Source: a virus
Taxonomy: Duplodnaviria > Caudoviricetes
Direction: 5' to 3' (one strand)
DNA: 58,397 bases
Virus record (IMG/VR): IMGVR_UViG_3300025466_000039
Location: 1 to 58,397 of that record
In this document: in pieces, positions 7,472 to 16,700 of the stretch
How the letters are laid out: each line of letters starts with the position of its first letter
Numbering within the stretch: the first letter of the stretch is position 1
Notes under the pieces: model-generated
What the model saw: only the letters and a program-made list of their open reading frames with translations
Database searches by the model: none
Told to the model about the DNA's origin: nothing
Program-made: the position numbers and the translations under genes

Positions 7472-7766
7472 ACCGCTACTAAACGCCTGTCGCGAGCTGC
7501 CTTGTCAGCATTGTGGCATCAGTGATGGGACTGTTGTGGCGGCTCATTCTAATCAACTGCGAGACGGCAAAGGACGCGGCCTGAAAGCTCACGATTATCG
7601 GGTTGCGTCACTCTGCTACAGGTGCCATATGGAATTAGACCAAGGCAAAGACTTATCTAAACAGGAAAGGATTGACTTGTTCGAAGCCGCCCATCGCAAA
7701 ACGATAGGCCAACTCTTTGAGAGAGGACTTATCTCTGTTTCTGCACCTGCGCAATCTCATCGTTAA
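7458..7766 (+). CDS. DUF1364/YbcO-like Zn-binding HNH-type nuclease
   Basis: CQHCG...TVVAAHSN...GKGRGLKAHD...LCYRCH. Confidence 0.7.
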   Translation: MYRNRPLLNACRELPCQHCGISDGTVVAAHSNQLRDGKGRGLKAHDYRVASLCYRCHMELDQGKDLSKQERIDLFEAAHRKTIGQLFERGLISVSAPAQSHR

Positions 7767-10700
7767 ACTGTTTCATTGTTTGAGTTTTGGCTGCTTCAAG
7801 CGCGCGTATATCTTTTATAGGTACCTTCGCTTGGAGCATTTCTTTTTTATCTTGGTTCATTTTGTTGACGTCGTTATAGTAACTATTAACTTCGTCAGCA
7901 AGAATTGCCGCAGGATATTGTTTATAAAACTTAGTTGGGTCTTGTCCGGCGGCCTCAATGTTCTTGACTTCATTTGCATACTTGTTCATCAATGTAACAT
8001 TGTTATAGAACTTGTCTTGAATGGCTGCCGCGCTTTTTGCATCACCATAGAAACGGCCAACAAGCGGAATCCTGTAACTTGGCTGAGATTCACTTGTGAA
8101 CCATGACTTAACTGTTTCTGCGCCTTTAATTACCTCGCGTGCAGCTCCTCCACCAACTTGACCAGCATAATAATCAAGCTCATCTGCTGTTGGGCTGATG
8201 TGGCCTTTTGTGAAGTGCGTACCTGGAGGTGAGCTGACATAGTTTAAGAACTCAGCAATCCATTGGCTAACTTGCGTTGCATTTTCCCTGCTCCTCATAA
8301 ACCCAGGTGTAGGTTTAAGAGCGGTGTCTTCTTTATAGATTGGCCGTCCAAACGCATCTTTATTCGTGGCTGTAGCCGCGATGGGATCAAGAACAGTTGG
8401 AGAAACCATTTGCAATAAAGAACCGCCACCCAATGGGTTAAATGCATCTGCAAATAAAGTGAGCACCTGTGTTGCCGCATCAGTCAATGGTTTTCCACCG
8501 CTGATTAAATGATTTTTACCAAGAACATATTCGGTAGCAATCCTTGCAACGCCAGGCACAACGTTATATCCAGGAGGCATTGGTAACGTTAAATACTTTT
8601 TATTGCCAATTGGAATAATGAAGTTTTTATCGCGAACATAGTCTGGGGGTTCATCTGCATCAAACCCAGCCGCCGCCATCCACAAGGCTTGGAGAACGCC
8701 AATGGTAAGACCGCCCGCAACAATCTTTCTTCCTGCCGGGCCTTTTAGCGTTTTTCCGACAAGAATTGTGCCCTGTACAGCTGGATTAAAGAATGCATAC
8801 AAAGCTTGTAAAAGAGGACTGGATTGACCTTTGCGGTTGAAGTTAATGGTGATGTTTTTAGCCAAACTGGCTGCACGTTCTTCGCTTAAATTATTATCAA
8901 GGGCGACTTTGAATACAGATAGACGAACAGCGTTTTCCATTGCTTCGTTATAGTCTGACAACATATCAAACAAATAGCGTGCTTTTTTCATGGCGCCTCT
9001 TTGAGTCTCGTCAGCCCACAATCTTTCAACAATTGTTGTATCTTTGCCGCTGAAGTTTCCTTTTGCAAACGACTCTCTAAATCCAGTTGTGCCACCAGCC
9101 CTGCGGAACCGATCATAAAGAGCAACATAGGGTCCTGTGACTGTTTGGTTTTTCCTGGCCGCCCTCTCATTTTGAATGATGGCAAACATTGCAGAAAATA
9201 CATGGCGAGCAACTTCTTTTTGCTTGCCAGCCAATGGAGTGTTGGTCAAATTAAATGCGGCGCCTTGAGCATCGCGCGCAAAGTTAATAACACCAAACAC
9301 AGGATTAAATTGTGTATTAACAGAGGCAAACCAACGCGTCATCATTGCCGTTGTGCCCAGCAGGCCACCCAAGGTCTGGGCGTCCAAGTTTGACATCGCC
9401 TGCGCCATTCTGATGGCTTTGGGATCCTTTGTATTAAAGAATATGTATCGATCTTTACCGTTGATCCTGACAGGGAATACATTGGGACTGCTTCTGAGGC
9501 CTGCATTAATGGTATAACGAACCTGTCCGGTTAAGGGATCAAGGCTGGGGGTCTTTGGCTCTTGGATGAAATTCTGTGCAGTAGAGATGGGCAGACCCAT
9601 CGAGACAAGCTCTTGATACAAGGCCGCTTTGTTTTTTACTGCATCGGGATTGACTGGTAGCCAAAAGTCTGGATTTGGGTTCTTTAATGCCAGGCCGTAT
9701 AGCGCACGACCAATTCGAGCTTTCTCAGATCGAATGATGGCACTCTCGCGTTGAATGGCTATGTTGGCAAGAATATCTACCACAGACTTTGATGACCCAT
9801 AGGCACGCTTCGATGCGCTTCCTTTGACCTGAAAGCCTTTGCCCAAACCGGCCCCATGATGCATGAAATCAAGCTCTTCCTGATCCCTCATGAGTGGAAT
9901 GTAATGCTTATAAGCTCTATTCCAATTGTCAATTGTTTCTTGAGTTTCTAGGCCGCGGTCAACAAGAATCTTTTGCGTGCCTTTAATAATGTCGTCTACT
10001 TTGGCGGCAATCTTTGCAAGCTCGGCCGCTTTTGTTGGATCAAGATTCTTAAAGTAATCTCTGGCCGCCTGAGTGCCAATACCAGAACCCGGCTCGTTAT
10101 CAACGTCTGCAAACCTGGGATTGATTTGTGCAATTGCATCATTACGCTCTTCGGCATGACGGTTATGCATATACTGCTCAAGATCGTCAATTGTAAGTTT
10201 AGCGCCTATTAAATCCTTGATGATTGGACTTAATTCATTTTTAAGAAAGTCTTTGATTTCATTGGCCGTCCTGCCATGATACAACTCCTCCTTCATGTAC
10301 GCATCAAACGCGTCATCAATCAGGCCAACATTTTTGGTAATCGCGGCTTGGACTTGCCTTGTATCAACGTGCTTGTCTGCAATTTTATAGTCAAGCGTGT
10401 TGATTAGATTGCCAAGTTTGGTCTCGGGCGCAAGATCCCAGGTCTTCTGCGGCGCAGGTCCGCCAAACACATTCCTCTTGCTCGGGGGACCGGGCGGGAA
10501 CATGTTGCCTTGTCGGCCTTGTGGGCTCAAGGGTGCAACTTGTTGCGATTGAGGAGCCGGCGGGAACATTTGGCCTTGGGATTTTAAACTAACACCAATA
10601 CCGGCGGCAACACTGGCTATAGACTGGCCTATTCTTTCGTTGGGCTTGCGACTGAATATATCGTTAAATACTTTATAGACTTCTGACTTGTGATTAACTC

Positions 10701-13700
10701 CAATAACCTTTTTGAGTCCTTCGAACAGGCGGCGCATTGCAAGCACAAAACGATCCCATCCAGAACCTAACTTCTTGTGCATCAACTTCTCGGCATTGAC
10801 AGCCCAATACTCTGATGGGGTTAAGAATTGATACCAGTTATTAAACTCTTCACGATCCTTTTCTTTGTTGCCGGTTTTTGGAACTGTAGGTATTGCAGCA
10901 ACAGCGGCGTCATATGTTGCATGACTAGGATTTGCAAAGAACACCTCAACCGCCTGGATATAATTTTTTGCTTGAGGATTTTGACTCTTTTTGACGGTTG
11001 CCTTGAAATCTCTTTCCCAAGCCTCAATCAAAGCAACCTTGGCCGCGGGGCTCATCATTTGTTCCATTGCGTGGGCCAACTCATGCCGAACGATTTCAGC
11101 CTTTATCACGCCTGCGGTTTTTTTATATAACTTAACAATTTGTTCAGCAAGATCAAACTCACCCAATGTGCTATTGAATATATCTTTAGATTGGATGACA
11201 GAGAGCTTTAGTCCCTCGAGTAAGAATGGTGCTTTTTCGTATGCAGCATGAATGACGTCATAGACTTCTTTTGCAATACCTTCTTCAGGCAATCCATTTC
11301 TTTTTGCTTTTTCGTAATTGTTTAAAAGCTGCCGAGCATATGTGTCAAAGTCCCCCGCAGTACGGGCTTCATCTTTGGTGTCCTCAATATAATCTTTAAG
11401 GTTTTTCGCAAGCGCATTTAAGTTTGTGAGCTCTTGCTGCAACGAAAGATTAGAGCCCTGCTTGGCCACTTCTTTCAAGACGTAAGCACGACGTTGGTTT
11501 ACTTTGGCATATTCCTGTACGGCGTTCTTTCTATCAATCTCCATTGTGGTTTGAGCACCAGGGTAGATTGGCATGTTGAAATTACGAACGGCAGCATTAA
11601 GAGGAATTTGATACTCCTCTTCCTTTGCGGCGATCTGTTCTTCACTTGGCTTTTTAGCCTCTTTAATTGGCGTCTTGATTTCTTTTGTAAGTGGCTCAAC
11701 GCGTTGGCGCATCATGTCATCACGATAGGTTGCCTTCCCGTTGACAAAGTCCATCGCATTTGTTGCACTATCGGGAACGATAAAGAGCTTGGCGCCATCC
11801 ATCTGAGATAGATGATTCTTAACCAAGTCACCAAACGTTGCCTTATCTACATTGATACAGCCAAACGAAAACCTAGAAACGTCAGGGCGTTCTGTCTTTA
11901 GGGCCGCCAGACGTTGTGCGGCGTCAGACTCATGCGTCCATACGGAATGCATGATGGTCATGGAGTAAGGGCCATGACGGCCTTCACCGGCGTGTTCGAT
12001 TACAAACACTTTGCCGTAATCATATTCACCGGCAGTCTCGGCCTCACCCTTAGAGCGGGATGCATCCCTCAAACCCAGGTTATATAGCCCAGCAGGCGTG
12101 ATCTTGTTGGCATCTATTTCATTAGATCCGGATGGCAAGAAATCACCCATGCTCTTGGACAACAATACCTTCTTATCCAACAGGAGAGATCCATCGGGAT
12201 TGAAGATAAAGTTTCTAGCCATCGGCTTGTCGGTCACGATAAAGAATTTATTGTTCTTCATCAACTCTTCTTTTAGAGTTGGATAAACGACGCTATAGAT
12301 CTGTTGTGCTGCTGGAGACATCTTTGCCTTTGCGTCCGCGGGGACTTCAGCATAGACGGTTTCAATGCGCGTCTCATATTGAGGAACCGCAATGATCTCT
12401 GGTTTGGTAATGAAGTTGGGATTGAGCACCATTGCAACAGATAGCAAGCTGTTTGCAATCTTATTGATGATAGGGCGAATCCTGTTCTTGATGGCCTTTG
12501 CGCCCTGCGTGATGAAGTTAAATACATCGTTATGCAGGCGCTCTAAAAATTCATTTGAGCCATGCTTGGCGCCGTACTCCTCCTCGAGCACAGCTTTTTC
12601 ATTGGCAGTCAACTTGTTGGATTCATCGGCAATCAATAACAATTGTTCTTCGTTACCAACCTCTTTAACCAAATCCGTCCCATCAATGATGTTGGACTCG
12701 TCTGTAATTTGTGGACCAAACTTGGCCAACAAAACACCAGGATCGTCTTCTTCTGCGAGAGCATCAATGATTGCCTGCTCTCTGGTTTTGCCTTTAGATA
12801 CGCCATCCAAAATAGCAGAACGCACTTTGCTGGCATCGGCTGTAACCTGCGTATTGGGTGACTCGTTAGCAACAATGTTTAATAAAGGATTGAGCTTGTA
12901 GTCAGATGCTGCGCCGAGAAAGTGAATCTTCTTTGGCTTTGACTCACGCAAGAAGTCAGCCAATTGATCTCTTGTGATAGCCTCTGCATTAGATGGAACG
13001 CCAACAATAAAGTCATCTGTACCCAGGGTCTTGACAACATGATCGTAAGCCTGCGATAGCGTCAATGCTCCATTTTGAATGGGAATCATTGGCTGAGTAA
13101 TATTGCCCTTGATTTCTGGAATGATCCAGTCTTTATGTTTATCAATTAAAGCTAACGACCCAGCTTGATCACCAACAATGTCTGGCATGACAATGATTGG
13201 ACGGGGATAATCCGTTTTTTCATCTTCGTTCAAATTATGAATTGCTTCAGTAATCTGATCGTACTTTGCAAGAATTTTATTAAAGTCAAGGGGCTTGGGT
13301 CCATTGCCCTTAAGGTTTTGCCTGAAGTTACTGAAAGCACCAGAGTCAATAAAGACCGGAACATTCATGTTCAAAATAGCGTGCGCAAGAGAGTCTATCG
13401 CATTGTTTGATAGTAACCCTACATCCACTCCTATTCCGTGGTTCTGATGGCTTCCTCGAGCCTTTACGCCTGACTCTAAATCGCTAACACCACTCATGCC
13501 TGATGCAAAGCGAACCATATCTTGTTTGATATTGGATAGAGCTCTTTGTTCTGGCGCCTCACCAAACAAATCCTCTTGGCCTTTGGCGGCGGCAATGTCG
13601 GCAGGACGATTACTTCCTGTCAAAGTAAACTCGCCAACGCCTTCATCGGCCTTGGCTTTAGCTTCCGCTTCTTTTTCGGCTTTTAATCGGTCTTCCTTGG

Positions 13701-16700
13701 CGCGTTCTGCTGCTCTGACTTCATCGGGTGTTTGACCGGTAAGTTCCAGTTGCGCTTTACTTGGCTCAAAAACTCTATTCTCGTCTTCGGGCTCAATGAC
13801 CGTATCAGCGAGGTCAGCTTCTCTTTGCTCATTAAATGCTTCTTCGAGGAGGAGGTTGACATCTTTTAACTCCAGTTGTTCTTTGATTTGATCTTCTAAC
13901 TCTTTGATGTTACCGCGCAAATCTTCTATTTCGCCGGTGATTTTTTCTATTTCTCTCTCGGCATCATACGTCATGTAATTGGGCGGATCTTCGCGCAATT
14001 TTTCTTTGATGTATTCAGAAGATTGTTTGTCATCAAAATTTGGATGATCGTGCCGCATTCCGTATGGCAAATATTCATCAAGATCGCCAGATGAAACAAT
14101 ATCAGCTAAATCAGCCCCGCCATTTTTGTTTTTAAGTTGAGTGTATTTTGTATCCGGAGAAATGTCGTTGACTTCTGATGCTTTTAATTTTTGTCTCAAG
14201 GCGCCAAATAAGCCTGTTGTTTTAACTCGTCTTCTGGCCATCTCAGCATATTCTAAATCCTTGTTGAGTTTTTCAAGATACAACTCATCTTCGGTTTTAT
14301 TTGTCAACTCTAGAGGGGGTGGAGTTTTTTTAACTCTAGTTTTTGTTGGAGTAATTAGTTTCTTTGCGGCCTTTATTGATTTATCGTGTTCAATCAAAGC
14401 CTTTTTCAATTCAGCATTGGCTTTTTGTATGGCCCTATTTTGCTCACCAGGCGTCTTCTTGTTGTTCCTGGCCATCTCATTAACAGCAATCTGACCTTTG
14501 TCTTTTAATATATCTGCGGTGCTATTTAAATCATCAATTGCTTTTTGATGTGCATCCGGATCTTTTGCCGCTGGCATGGACTCAGTTAATTGATTAACCA
14601 AATCATTTGACCTATTGATACCATCAACCGCGGGTTGCGCAAGTTTTTCTAATATGGGCGCCGGGGTTAACTTCGACTTGCCAACTTTAATTTTTGGTTC
14701 TATAGCGGCAGTTGGCTTTTCTTCTTCCGCCTTGGGTTCTTCTGACGGCAACTTCTCTTCAACTTTTGGAGCGGTTGGTTCTTCTTTTTTGACTTCGGCA
14801 GGCCTCTCTGTAGGAGCGGGCTCGTTAAACTTATGTGCTTTAACAGCTTGTTCTCTAACGAAATTCAAAGCGTTTGCCTGCGCCTCATCGCCAAACGTCT
14901 TATTGGAGAACATCCTTGCAGAACCAGGAATATACTTGCCTGCATCAGCATCAAACATGTTGGCTGTATAACCTGTAGGTGTTTTTAAAACGTGATATTC
15001 CGTGTTTTCACCCATAGGAATATTGGCCACTTGCTCAACATTGGGTGGCAACTTTGGTGCTGTAGCGATTGGCTCTTCAACTTTGGGCGCTTTAACTTTA
15101 GGTGCAGGAGCTTCTTTTTCGGCACCCATGCTTTCAGCAACCCTAACTATATCCGGACGATTGTTTTCTACACCAAAATTGTATGCTTGCTGTATTCCCT
15201 CTTTTGATCTTGCCATTGGGTTTATCAAAGAACTAATTGCAACATGCAAGGGATTGTCGGCAACGGTCTTGCCTTTGCTTTCATCTTCTTTACGAATTAA
15301 ATTAGCCTCTTCTAACAATTGATTGCGGTCAGCTCTAAGTTGAAATTGCTCAAGCTGAGTATCAAATGCTTTTTGGTTTTCAACAGGAGCTTCCTCGATG
15401 TTTTTACCACTCAGCTCATCCAACATAGCCTGAGTATCTTGACTCTCAGATGGCGCCGCAACTTGTTGCTCCTGTGGTTGCTGTTCTTGCGGCGGCTGCT
15501 CTGGAGGTGCAATAGCAACAGGCAACTTTTTATTGCGATCAACAGTCTCTTCTGGCTGAATCAATTCTTGATTGTAAGAATTGGGATCAAGTCTAGCTAT
15601 GGCTTCTCGTTTTATTTTCTCTGGAGAAAAATTGCCAGACTTTACATCTTCTTTAATGGCGTCAGCAATTTGCTTGTTTCTGCCATAGTCTGTGTTGTCG
15701 TAAACTTTACCAGCAATATGAGCCCCACCAGCCATAATCCCCGACATCAACATAACATCAGGCAAAACTTCTTTGGCAGATTTGGCAATATCACCCATAT
15801 CTGTAAATGAACGTTTGGGTTGATTGCTAAGTCCCGCATCAACTTCAACGTTATGTTGACCAGTCTGAGTAACGGTTTCGGTGCCAAGCTCTGTACCAAA
15901 TTCAAGAGCAGATGCGCCAAAAGACTTGAGCGTACCCATGAGACCTTTTCCGGCCTCTTTAAATATAACGCTACCTAATTTTGCACCCAAAGCATTACCA
16001 AGTGCTTCTGGAACCGCCTCCCAAAGGCCATGTTCTTGAACTAGATCGTTATATTGCTTGGCATAGTCCAGCCATTGCTTATCTGTTAGAGGCTTTCCTG
16101 TAGCCTTTACAGAAGCATCATCAAGATTTTCTCTAATGTCTCGTAGAAAACCATTGGTATCCATGCGGTAAGCAGCCAGACCAGACGCAGCTGTACCCGC
16201 GGCATATCCACCAACTGGGCCGGTAACCATGCCCACCGCACCAGCAGCCAATCCGGCACCCATAGAAAGTACCGAGAACATTGCATTCTGAGGCAACTCT
16301 CTGACTTTTTGACGGGTAATTCCTAAGATATATTCATCTTGTAAACTTGGATCTTTTGCGTTTTTCTTTGAGAGCTCTCTGGCCTCTGCAATAGCATCAT
16401 GCTGCCAATCCGTTTGCGATGTTAAATCTTCTGGTTTGTTGCCGCCAACTAAAGCCTGTGTTGCAGCTTTAGCGTAAGTGGGCGTAGCTTGTCCTGCTGC
16501 AAATATATCTTGCGCAAGATTTCCACCCAAAACCTTTGGACCAACTTGTTTACCTAATTCAGCCTCCCCTGTGGCTGATTCTGCAAATGGAGCCCACCAC
16601 GGTTTTTCTGCTGGCGAAGCGGATTGGGCGGCGGCAGGCACAGAAGGCTGTGCGACTGGAGCGGCCTGGGGCTGGAGCAAACCAGCCAAACCCAATTGAC

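Follow-up and report, generated by a model that had tools for sequence, protein, structure and literature searches.

In DpdA of the Salmonella Montevideo Dpd restriction-modification system, Asp95 acts as general acid/base and Phe99 stacks on the base, Asp130 and His181 read the base, Asp256 is the nucleophile, and a CXCX2CX22H zinc site pins a large insertion, as described in PMC10164549. Phage DpdA (DpdA1, of the Enterobacteria phage 9g gp03 type; phrog_887) is the product of a stand-alone gene of ~270-375 amino acids (aa), and 9g dpdA expressed alone in Escherichia coli gives dPreQ0 in plasmid DNA (PMC6884629). Polyvalent virion proteins with anti-restriction enzymes form a separately described group of giant multidomain proteins (Iyer et al. 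2017; PMC5512222). Here we describe a DpdA-like domain embedded in a protein of this last kind, in the virus record IMGVR_UViG_3300025466_000039 (Duplodnaviria; Caudoviricetes). The whole record, 58,397 bases and estimated to be 97% complete, was analyzed and is called the window; all window features given below lie on the minus strand.

The domain occupies aa 1108-1377 (12709..13518) of a 3,036-aa protein (P0001; 7729..16839), the product of the longest open reading frame (ORF) in the window. It belongs to an uncatalogued branch of the TGT/DpdA transglycosylase superfamily, a subfamily that takes the form of a module within a polyvalent virion protein, and we consider the domain very probably a catalytically intact, DpdA-like TIM barrel whose activity is predicted. 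The reading of its function that we prefer, with slightly better than even confidence, is that it represents a new, virion-borne subfamily of DpdA, one that replaces bases in DNA by means of host-made precursors.

Fold, motifs, and homology to phage DpdA

An earlier note on this stretch had recognized four motifs, in a fixed order, as a transglycosylase-type domain. We find them in that order in the 3,036-aa ORF: VFIDSGAFS at aa 1162-1170 (13330-13356), IVMPDIVGD at aa 1216-1224 (13168-13194), IHFLG at aa 1305-1309 (12913-12927), and ADAS at aa 1334-1337 (12829-12840). The note had given the domain as 12740-13518 (aa 1108-1366); its start is retained, but the structural model extends its end slightly, to about aa 1377 (12709).

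An AlphaFold2 model of aa 1108-1377, computed from an alignment of 68 relatives, has a mean predicted local distance difference test score of 92.2 and a predicted template modeling score of 0.88, and contains eight strand-helix units. The invariant residues are all located at or just after the C-terminal ends of strands, which form the catalytic face of a TIM barrel, and the three conserved aspartates are all at strand C termini on that same face. Whether the predicted fold would be a TGT-like TIM barrel had been set beforehand as the point on which the assignment could fail, and a confident eight-unit beta/alpha barrel is what the model gives. In a Foldseek search of the PDB, tRNA-guanine transglycosylases (TGTs) occupy ranks 1-26 (E = 1.4e-5 to 3.8e-5) and 44 of the 49 rows listed, with template modeling (TM) scores of 0.47-0.56 and root-mean-square deviations of 5-6 Å. 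The best of these structures, those of Zymomonas mobilis TGT (E about 1.4e-5), share about 12% identity with the module, which unlike TGT matches no PF01702 model and has no zinc site. Against BFVD, the top match is a true homologue inside an ART-PolyVal-containing protein (E = 2.6e-15); seven of the lower matches are proteins of phages or archaeal viruses that bear the name queuine tRNA-ribosyltransferase, with E = 1.3e-4 to 8.2e-4 for the first three.

Structure alone separates TGT from other TIM barrels only weakly in this model, because unrelated barrels score close to TGT, sugar epimerases and aldolases among them. These scores would also suit a barrel enzyme that has diverged toward a substrate other than nucleic acid, cleaving the glycosidic bond of a free nucleotide, of an NAD-type or signaling molecule, or of a carbohydrate. 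Two features of the relatives fit such an enzyme as well: ART domains co-occur in 4 of the 24 polyvalent relatives that we scanned for fused domains, and one relative is fused to InPase, a domain proposed to act on nucleotide-like substrates (PMC5512222). Sequence comparison makes the non-nucleic-acid alternative quite improbable in our estimate. Five motifs after strands 3, 4, 5, 7, and 8 align with DpdA, the D-x3-F arrangement and the Asp/Gln pair are kept, and a search of PHROG singles out DpdA from 38,880 families.

For this comparison we used 14 phage DpdA sequences: ten from GenBank (9g, CAjan, Iggy, a Stenotrophomonas phage, BcepGomr, ZHS, Bipper, Dp-1, Qyrzula, and phiFN37) and four database homologues. 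hhalign aligns the 68-member family profile with this set over 156 columns at 95.7% probability (E = 9.2e-9), pairing DSGAF with DSGAF, PD.VGDQ with LD.IGDP, P.Q.G with FH.G, H.LG with HGFG, and (S/T)ADA with SCDS. Reversing either alignment lowers the probability to 0.2% (E = 0.25 and 0.34), and against 9g DpdA alone the family profile reaches 88.8%. Module and phage DpdA thus have five conserved strand-end motifs in a common order. The module has one more conserved motif, PSN after strand 6, which is placed opposite the LGG strand of DpdA in the alignment. They differ in that the module has extra conserved N-terminal strands (F.SG.S) and identity over the aligned part is about 19%. In the PHROG scan, 40 of the 68 relatives match phrog_887, annotated as queuine tRNA-ribosyltransferase (best E = 2.3e-8), and another 28 match the unnamed phrog_15826.

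Other searches returned little. Pfam and NCBIfam gave no match on aa 1075-1400, blastn and tblastn of the domain gave none in 50,697 GenBank phage records, and phmmer gave none in the PDB; a profile search of the PDB found only four weak matches to mitochondrial and other single-stranded-DNA-binding proteins (E = 0.23-0.36), which we take as chance. One ESM Atlas cluster near window 12685-13518 (score 0.95) has the automatic label "T4 beta protein family protein," a lead that was not confirmed, as the Pfam model Beta_protein (PF14350) has no match in the window. In another nearby ESM Atlas cluster (score 0.93), Pfam DpdA is present in 17% of members.

When relatives are aligned to the family hidden Markov model (HMM), eight positions are invariant: S1113, G1114, D1165, D1220, P1282, H1306, L1308, and D1335. 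D1165, in DSGAF at the end of strand 3 (13345..13347), is D in 177 of 177 relatives, aligns with the invariant DSGAF of phage DpdA, and is the candidate general acid/base; four residues on, F1169 is F in 162/177 and Y in 13/177 (175/177 together). D1220, in VMPDIVGDQ just after strand 4 (13180..13182), is D in 182/182 and aligns with the D of LDGIGD in phage DpdA; it is the candidate base-recognition aspartate. Q1255, in IPIQNG after strand 5 (13075..13077), would contact the base edge; it is Q in 166/183 relatives and H in 9/183, and aligns with the invariant His of the phage DpdA FH.G, so that phage DpdA has His where the module has Gln. H1306-F-L1308 of IHFLG, on strand 7 (12916..12924), has H and L in 183/183 relatives each and aligns with HGFG. 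The candidate nucleophile is D1335, in TADAS at the end of strand 8 (12835..12837), which is D in 181/181 and aligns with the invariant D of the S.DSS of phage DpdA. Because these positions are invariant in relatives and reversed profiles fail, we exclude chance motifs. The catalytic aspartates on which the earlier note had also made its proposal depend, D1165, D1220, and D1335, are all present and invariant in 177-182 relatives.

The roles proposed for D1165, D1220, Q1255, and D1335 are assigned by homology. By motif order, the counterparts of the Salmonella residues would be D1165/F1169, D1220, Q1255, and D1335, a correspondence that comes from alignments to phage DpdA and not from superposition. 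The module would thereby share with bacterial DpdA a TIM barrel, an acid Asp with Phe at +4, a recognition Asp, and a nucleophile Asp (PMC10164549), and some of its relatives also have a DpdC-related partner. It lacks the Ins8 subdomain and the zinc site of bacterial DpdA: the domain has no cysteine and therefore no zinc subdomain. The phage DpdA alignment is likewise without an invariant (zinc-site) cysteine, so the zinc site does not define the phage branch.

These comparisons also bear on whether the module might act on tRNA, as a TGT-like enzyme that inserts or removes queuosine precursors at host tRNA anticodons and so biases translation during infection. The best solved-structure matches are TGTs, after all, and the host would supply both tRNA and preQ1. 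Yet the nearest family by sequence is phage DpdA (none of the 68 relatives match Pfam TGT, and 40 match phrog_887), the zinc subdomain whose insertion contacts tRNA in TGT (PMC10164549) is absent, and the genes and domains associated with the module are DNA-directed (Mom, C5 methylase, DUF6884; next section), which sets it apart from TGT. We rate action on tRNA as very improbable.

A further comparison is with DpdA4 of archaeal viruses (DUF6610, PF20314), like the module a far-diverged viral DpdA branch found only by profile methods (PMC10516641). Two of the 68 relatives match DUF6610, marginally (E = 0.0026), and DpdA4 viruses, unlike those considered here, mostly have preQ1 synthesis genes (PMC10516641).

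Distribution of the module and its DNA-directed associations

An exhaustive search of 1.84 billion cluster representatives (50% identity) returned 652 relatives at E ≤ 1e-3, 288 at E ≤ 1e-10, and 57 at E ≤ 1e-30. Among the best 150, 65 are at most 500 aa long, 19 are 501-1000 aa, 25 are 1001-3000 aa, and 41 exceed 3,000 aa. In viruses the module almost always sits inside giant polyvalent proteins: 35 of the 37 copies in IMG/VR are in open frames of >1,300 aa that run beyond the fetched 3-kb flanks. In bacterial genomes, searched with an 18-sequence subset of the 68-sequence alignment, we found 41 loci, and the ORF containing the domain is <500 aa in 37 of the 40 that could be called. Stand-alone copies occur in culture-collection strains of Pseudomonas, Noviherbaspirillum, Azohydromonas, and Microvirga. 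The neighbors of the domain in Microvirga are labeled hypothetical by the Prokaryotic Genome Annotation Pipeline, and an ESM Atlas search of the conserved neighbor gave nothing usable.

Fused domains in the 24 scanned polyvalent relatives include ART-PolyVal, LPD1, InPase (2/24), and RadC. One metagenomic relative of 540 aa (P0004) consists of InPase (PF18823, E = 1.2e-41) fused directly to the DpdA-like domain. In the literature on polyvalent proteins, transglycosylases, DpdA, and Mom we found no description of the module, the supplements of PMC5512222 and PMC10516641 lying outside the scope of that search.

Several recurrent partners of the module act on DNA or are predicted to. Five Noviherbaspirillum loci have a DUF6884 gene directly after that of the domain; the representative scanned matches DUF6884 at E = 2.2e-11, and the rest were assigned to its group by clustering with blastp. 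The same representative matches PF03883 at E = 3.5e-6. To this family belongs DpdC, the enzyme that makes dADG from dPreQ0 in DNA (PMC12839542), and by this match DUF6884 would be a distant relative of DpdC. DUF6884 has been predicted to bind DNA and flip a base, and its member YfjM is listed among abasic-lesion binders (PMC11701544). DUF6884 is fused in 2 of the 24 polyvalent relatives, and 4 of the 37 viral records encode it within the giant frame that also contains the module; two of those four have it about 100-130 residues past the DpdA-like domain, as calculated from the coordinates.

A gene of the Mom family (PF25680; representative E = 3.8e-24) is found beside the domain in 6 of the 41 bacterial loci, DUF4942 also in 6 of 41, and a C5 DNA methylase is fused in 2 of the 24 relatives. 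The stand-alone copies next to Mom are from Rhodocyclaceae, a gammaproteobacterial metagenome-assembled genome, and Noviherbaspirillum (L021:7198-7980, L044, L023, L026, L036, and L040). Together with DUF6884 in Noviherbaspirillum, the Mom-adjacent loci look like a small DNA-modification island. A search for Mom in the 37 viral records gave none, but its controls did not register and the result is uninformative.

These associations are a minority and partly bound to lineage; they raise the odds of a DNA target without settling it. On balance, DNA is probably the substrate.

Source of the incoming base and the proposed reaction

The earlier note had recognized no queuosine-pathway genes in this genome, and profile searches bear it out: QueC, GTP cyclohydrolase I, PTPS/QueD, radical SAM, and TGT models are all unmatched, with controls that registered. 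ParB and DUF6884 likewise have no match in the window, their controls registering in well-known genomes. QueC and GTP cyclohydrolase I (FolE) are also missing from every one of the 37 related viral records, of which 21 are at least 90% complete. Phage DpdA differs in this respect, being usually linked to synthesis or transport genes, whereas the module is never found with synthesis genes (none of the 37 records, nor the phage of the window). Of ten phage dpdA neighborhoods that we fetched, seven have FolE or QueC beside the gene, Dp-1 and phiFN37 have a queuosine-precursor transporter gene there, and Bipper alone shows neither in the fetched stretch. There is precedent for a host-supplied base in the dPreQ0 formed by 9g dpdA alone and in 76 phages that encode DpdA without synthesis genes (PMC6884629).

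The exchange reaction that we prefer, by homology with DpdA, would run as follows. A deoxyguanosine would be flipped from duplex DNA into the mouth of the barrel; D1335 would attack C1' while D1165 protonates the leaving guanine, giving a covalent enzyme-DNA intermediate; and D1220 and Q1255 would read a free 7-deazaguanine-type base that takes the place of the guanine. Since the phage has no genes for such a base, it would come from the host queuosine pathway, as preQ0 or preQ1. A host-derived 7-deazaguanine is our leading guess for the incoming base, at somewhat less than even odds. The enzyme would be made late, with the structural proteins. It might mark the DNA of progeny ahead of packaging, or else accompany the genome and work upon entry, and protection from restriction is what the phage would be expected to gain.

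A number of observations weigh against this reading. The query by itself matches phrog_887 only at E = 0.07-0.09 (0.071-0.088); neither Pfam TGT (PF01702) nor Pfam DpdA (PF23859) has a match in the window even at E = 10, no relative among the 68 matches Pfam TGT, and the PADLOC DpdA models give no match. The PF23859 miss does not exclude membership, because none of the 14 bona fide phage DpdA sequences matches any Pfam model; the lack of a Pfam match is in fact one of the features that module and phage DpdA share. On the structural side, unrelated TIM barrels follow at 4e-5, close behind TGT at 1.4e-5, with TM scores of only about 0.5, and the CXCX2CX22H zinc site of Salmonella DpdA is not in the domain. 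The phage has no ParB/DpdB partner of the kind found with bacterial DpdA. An enzyme injected together with DNA would also have little time to protect that same DNA. Finally, synthesis genes are uniformly absent, which a different substrate or a hydrolytic reaction would explain no less well than reliance on the host does; this absence is the strongest point for either of the first two.

If the reaction were hydrolytic, the module would be a DNA glycosylase: with its barrel and aspartates unchanged, it would excise guanine, or a modified base belonging to the host or a rival element, and put nothing in its place. The resulting abasic sites could damage host DNA for takeover, or the reaction could erase a self-mark of the host. 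Besides the lack of base-synthesis genes in the phage and in the 37 related viral records, this would accord with the recurrence of DUF6884, whose member YfjM is a reported abasic-lesion binder (PMC11701544), and with the proposal that polyvalent proteins carry early-invasion effectors (PMC5512222). The superfamily members characterized in PMC10164549 and PMC10516641, however, all exchange bases and do not hydrolyze; conservation of the base-recognition Asp and of the Gln/His is strict, as expected for a guanine-like incoming base; and the DpdC-related partner suggests further chemistry on an inserted base. We consider a glycosylase unlikely, and retain base exchange in DNA as the preferred reading.

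The giant protein and a candidate clamp-binding peptide

The earlier note had placed the domain in a giant virion protein, and the ORF agrees with this, encoding a polyvalent protein with LPD38 in a block of structural genes. LPD38 (PF18857; aa 2729-2927, 8059..8655; E = 1.1e-36) is the sole Pfam match in the 3,036 residues and, according to PMC5512222, is confined to phage-type polyvalent proteins. The C-terminal 900 aa match giant-protein PHROGs of unassigned function (phrog_14770 at E = 5.9e-168, phrog_616, and phrog_10691). For window 7732-10452 (aa 2130-3036, including LPD38), counterparts with 28-41% identity form the ends of giant proteins in 333 GenBank phage records, from Bacillus phage Dartukuta and Methanosarcina virus MetMV to many short-tailed Stx-converting, Vibrio, Ralstonia, and Burkholderia phages. 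This C-terminal module is very widely shared and is possibly a virion anchor.

The giant gene follows genes for a 412-aa protein that weakly matches a DNA-ejection family (phrog_4287, E = 6.1e-4) and for a virion structural protein (phrog_3287, E = 1e-58), with portal and terminase genes further along. With these neighbors, it is plausible that the giant protein is packaged in the virion and ejected. The likeness to the polyvalent proteins of PMC5512222 extends from the giant multidomain build with LPD38 and the late-gene block to the company kept by the module's relatives, which combine with ART-PolyVal, LPD1, InPase, RadC, and methylases. As far as the main text of PMC5512222 shows, the module is outside its catalog, the terms TGT, TIM barrel, queuine, and glycosylase having no occurrence there. 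Phage DpdA, by comparison, is encoded by a stand-alone gene, and the module is part of a 3,036-aa structural protein.

Two further regions of the giant protein follow the DpdA-like domain. A HELAH (HEXXH) motif at aa 1919-1923 (11071..11085) may mark a processing metallopeptidase; it has a weak match to NCBIfam HEXXH_WD0702 (E = 0.046) and none in Pfam, and is possibly the processing protease expected in polyvalent proteins. At window 11680-12402 (aa 1480-1720) we observe an H-G ... S-F-G-C-I-N pattern (FGCINV at aa 1659-1664), which resembles the active sites of L,D-transpeptidases (YkuD). A YkuD assignment is not supported, as Pfam YkuD has no match to this region even at E = 10 and the PDB no sequence match.

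Seventeen residues before strand 1 of the barrel is a peptide, Q1088-E-D-L-F1092 (13564..13578), that resembles a beta-clamp-binding motif. The bacterial clamp-binding pentapeptide has the consensus QL[SD]LF. The module, or a fragment released from the giant protein, might dock through this peptide on the beta clamp of the host and scan newly replicated DNA, as an addition to base exchange in DNA rather than a replacement for it. In keeping with such a tether, the family HMM consensus begins ..QLDLF.., the strict motif is enriched upstream of the domain (15 of 112 segments vs. 12 of 1985 control windows), twelve copies of the loose motif are at one fixed spacing, and stand-alone relatives that carry the motif have it at the extreme N terminus. 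On the other side, only a minority of relatives have the motif, short D-L-F peptides are also plausible as linkers or protease sites in polyproteins, and the literature on DpdA and clamps yielded nothing relevant. A complex prediction of the domain and upstream peptide with the E. coli beta clamp, as a stand-in for that of the host, scored 0.21 where the mark was 0.32, and counts neither way. We regard the tether as somewhat unlikely, and the peptide as a candidate only.

Known DpdA proteins show a similar feature. Those of the 9g type end in Q-E-L-F (or Q-D-L-F or Q-E-L-Y) in 98 of 120 close homologues (P0187-P0306), and a tail of this type is seen, by reading of the alignment, in 7 of 10 diverse phage DpdA sequences. 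In 9g (L001:3010-3960), CAjan, Iggy, and the Stenotrophomonas phage (L002, L003, and L004), dpdA adjoins a clamp gene or is one small gene away from it. Both the tails and the four neighboring clamp genes speak for the tether and suggest that known DpdA enzymes may be clamp-tethered. At window 13576-13746 (aa 1032-1088) there are also two linker-like elements of the form L-T-G-(Q/S) ... A-A; L-T-G falls at aa 1033 in the first and at aa 1073 in the second, which leads into Q-E-D-L-F. Relatives P0044, P0085, and P0096 have an F.LTGS..PAD...GQ..LF element of this kind ahead of the domain, and the LTG element may be a processing site or a docking peptide.

The widest interpretation, which we put forward tentatively and regard as doubtful in its entirety, is a sixth lineage of DpdA that travels as virion cargo: the phage would have no pathway of its own, the enzyme would be recruited by a clamp peptide, a host-derived and possibly new base would be written into DNA, and a fused, DpdC-like DUF6884 domain would process it in some lineages. 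If this is true, an unrecognized DNA hypermodification exists in hundreds of uncultured phages and in some bacteria (652 cluster representatives), and infection can bring in a DNA-modifying enzyme already in protein form. It has been proposed that viral 7-deazaguanine DNA modification has its signature in DpdA proteins (PMC10516641). Because Pfam, NCBIfam, and PADLOC models do not detect this branch, it is probably missed when modified phage genomes are surveyed. The module raises the questions of whether a phage can depend wholly on queuosine precursors of the host and whether a base-exchange enzyme can arrive ready-made with the genome, and the stand-alone copies in culture-collection strains are direct material for tests of DNA by liquid chromatography-mass spectrometry.

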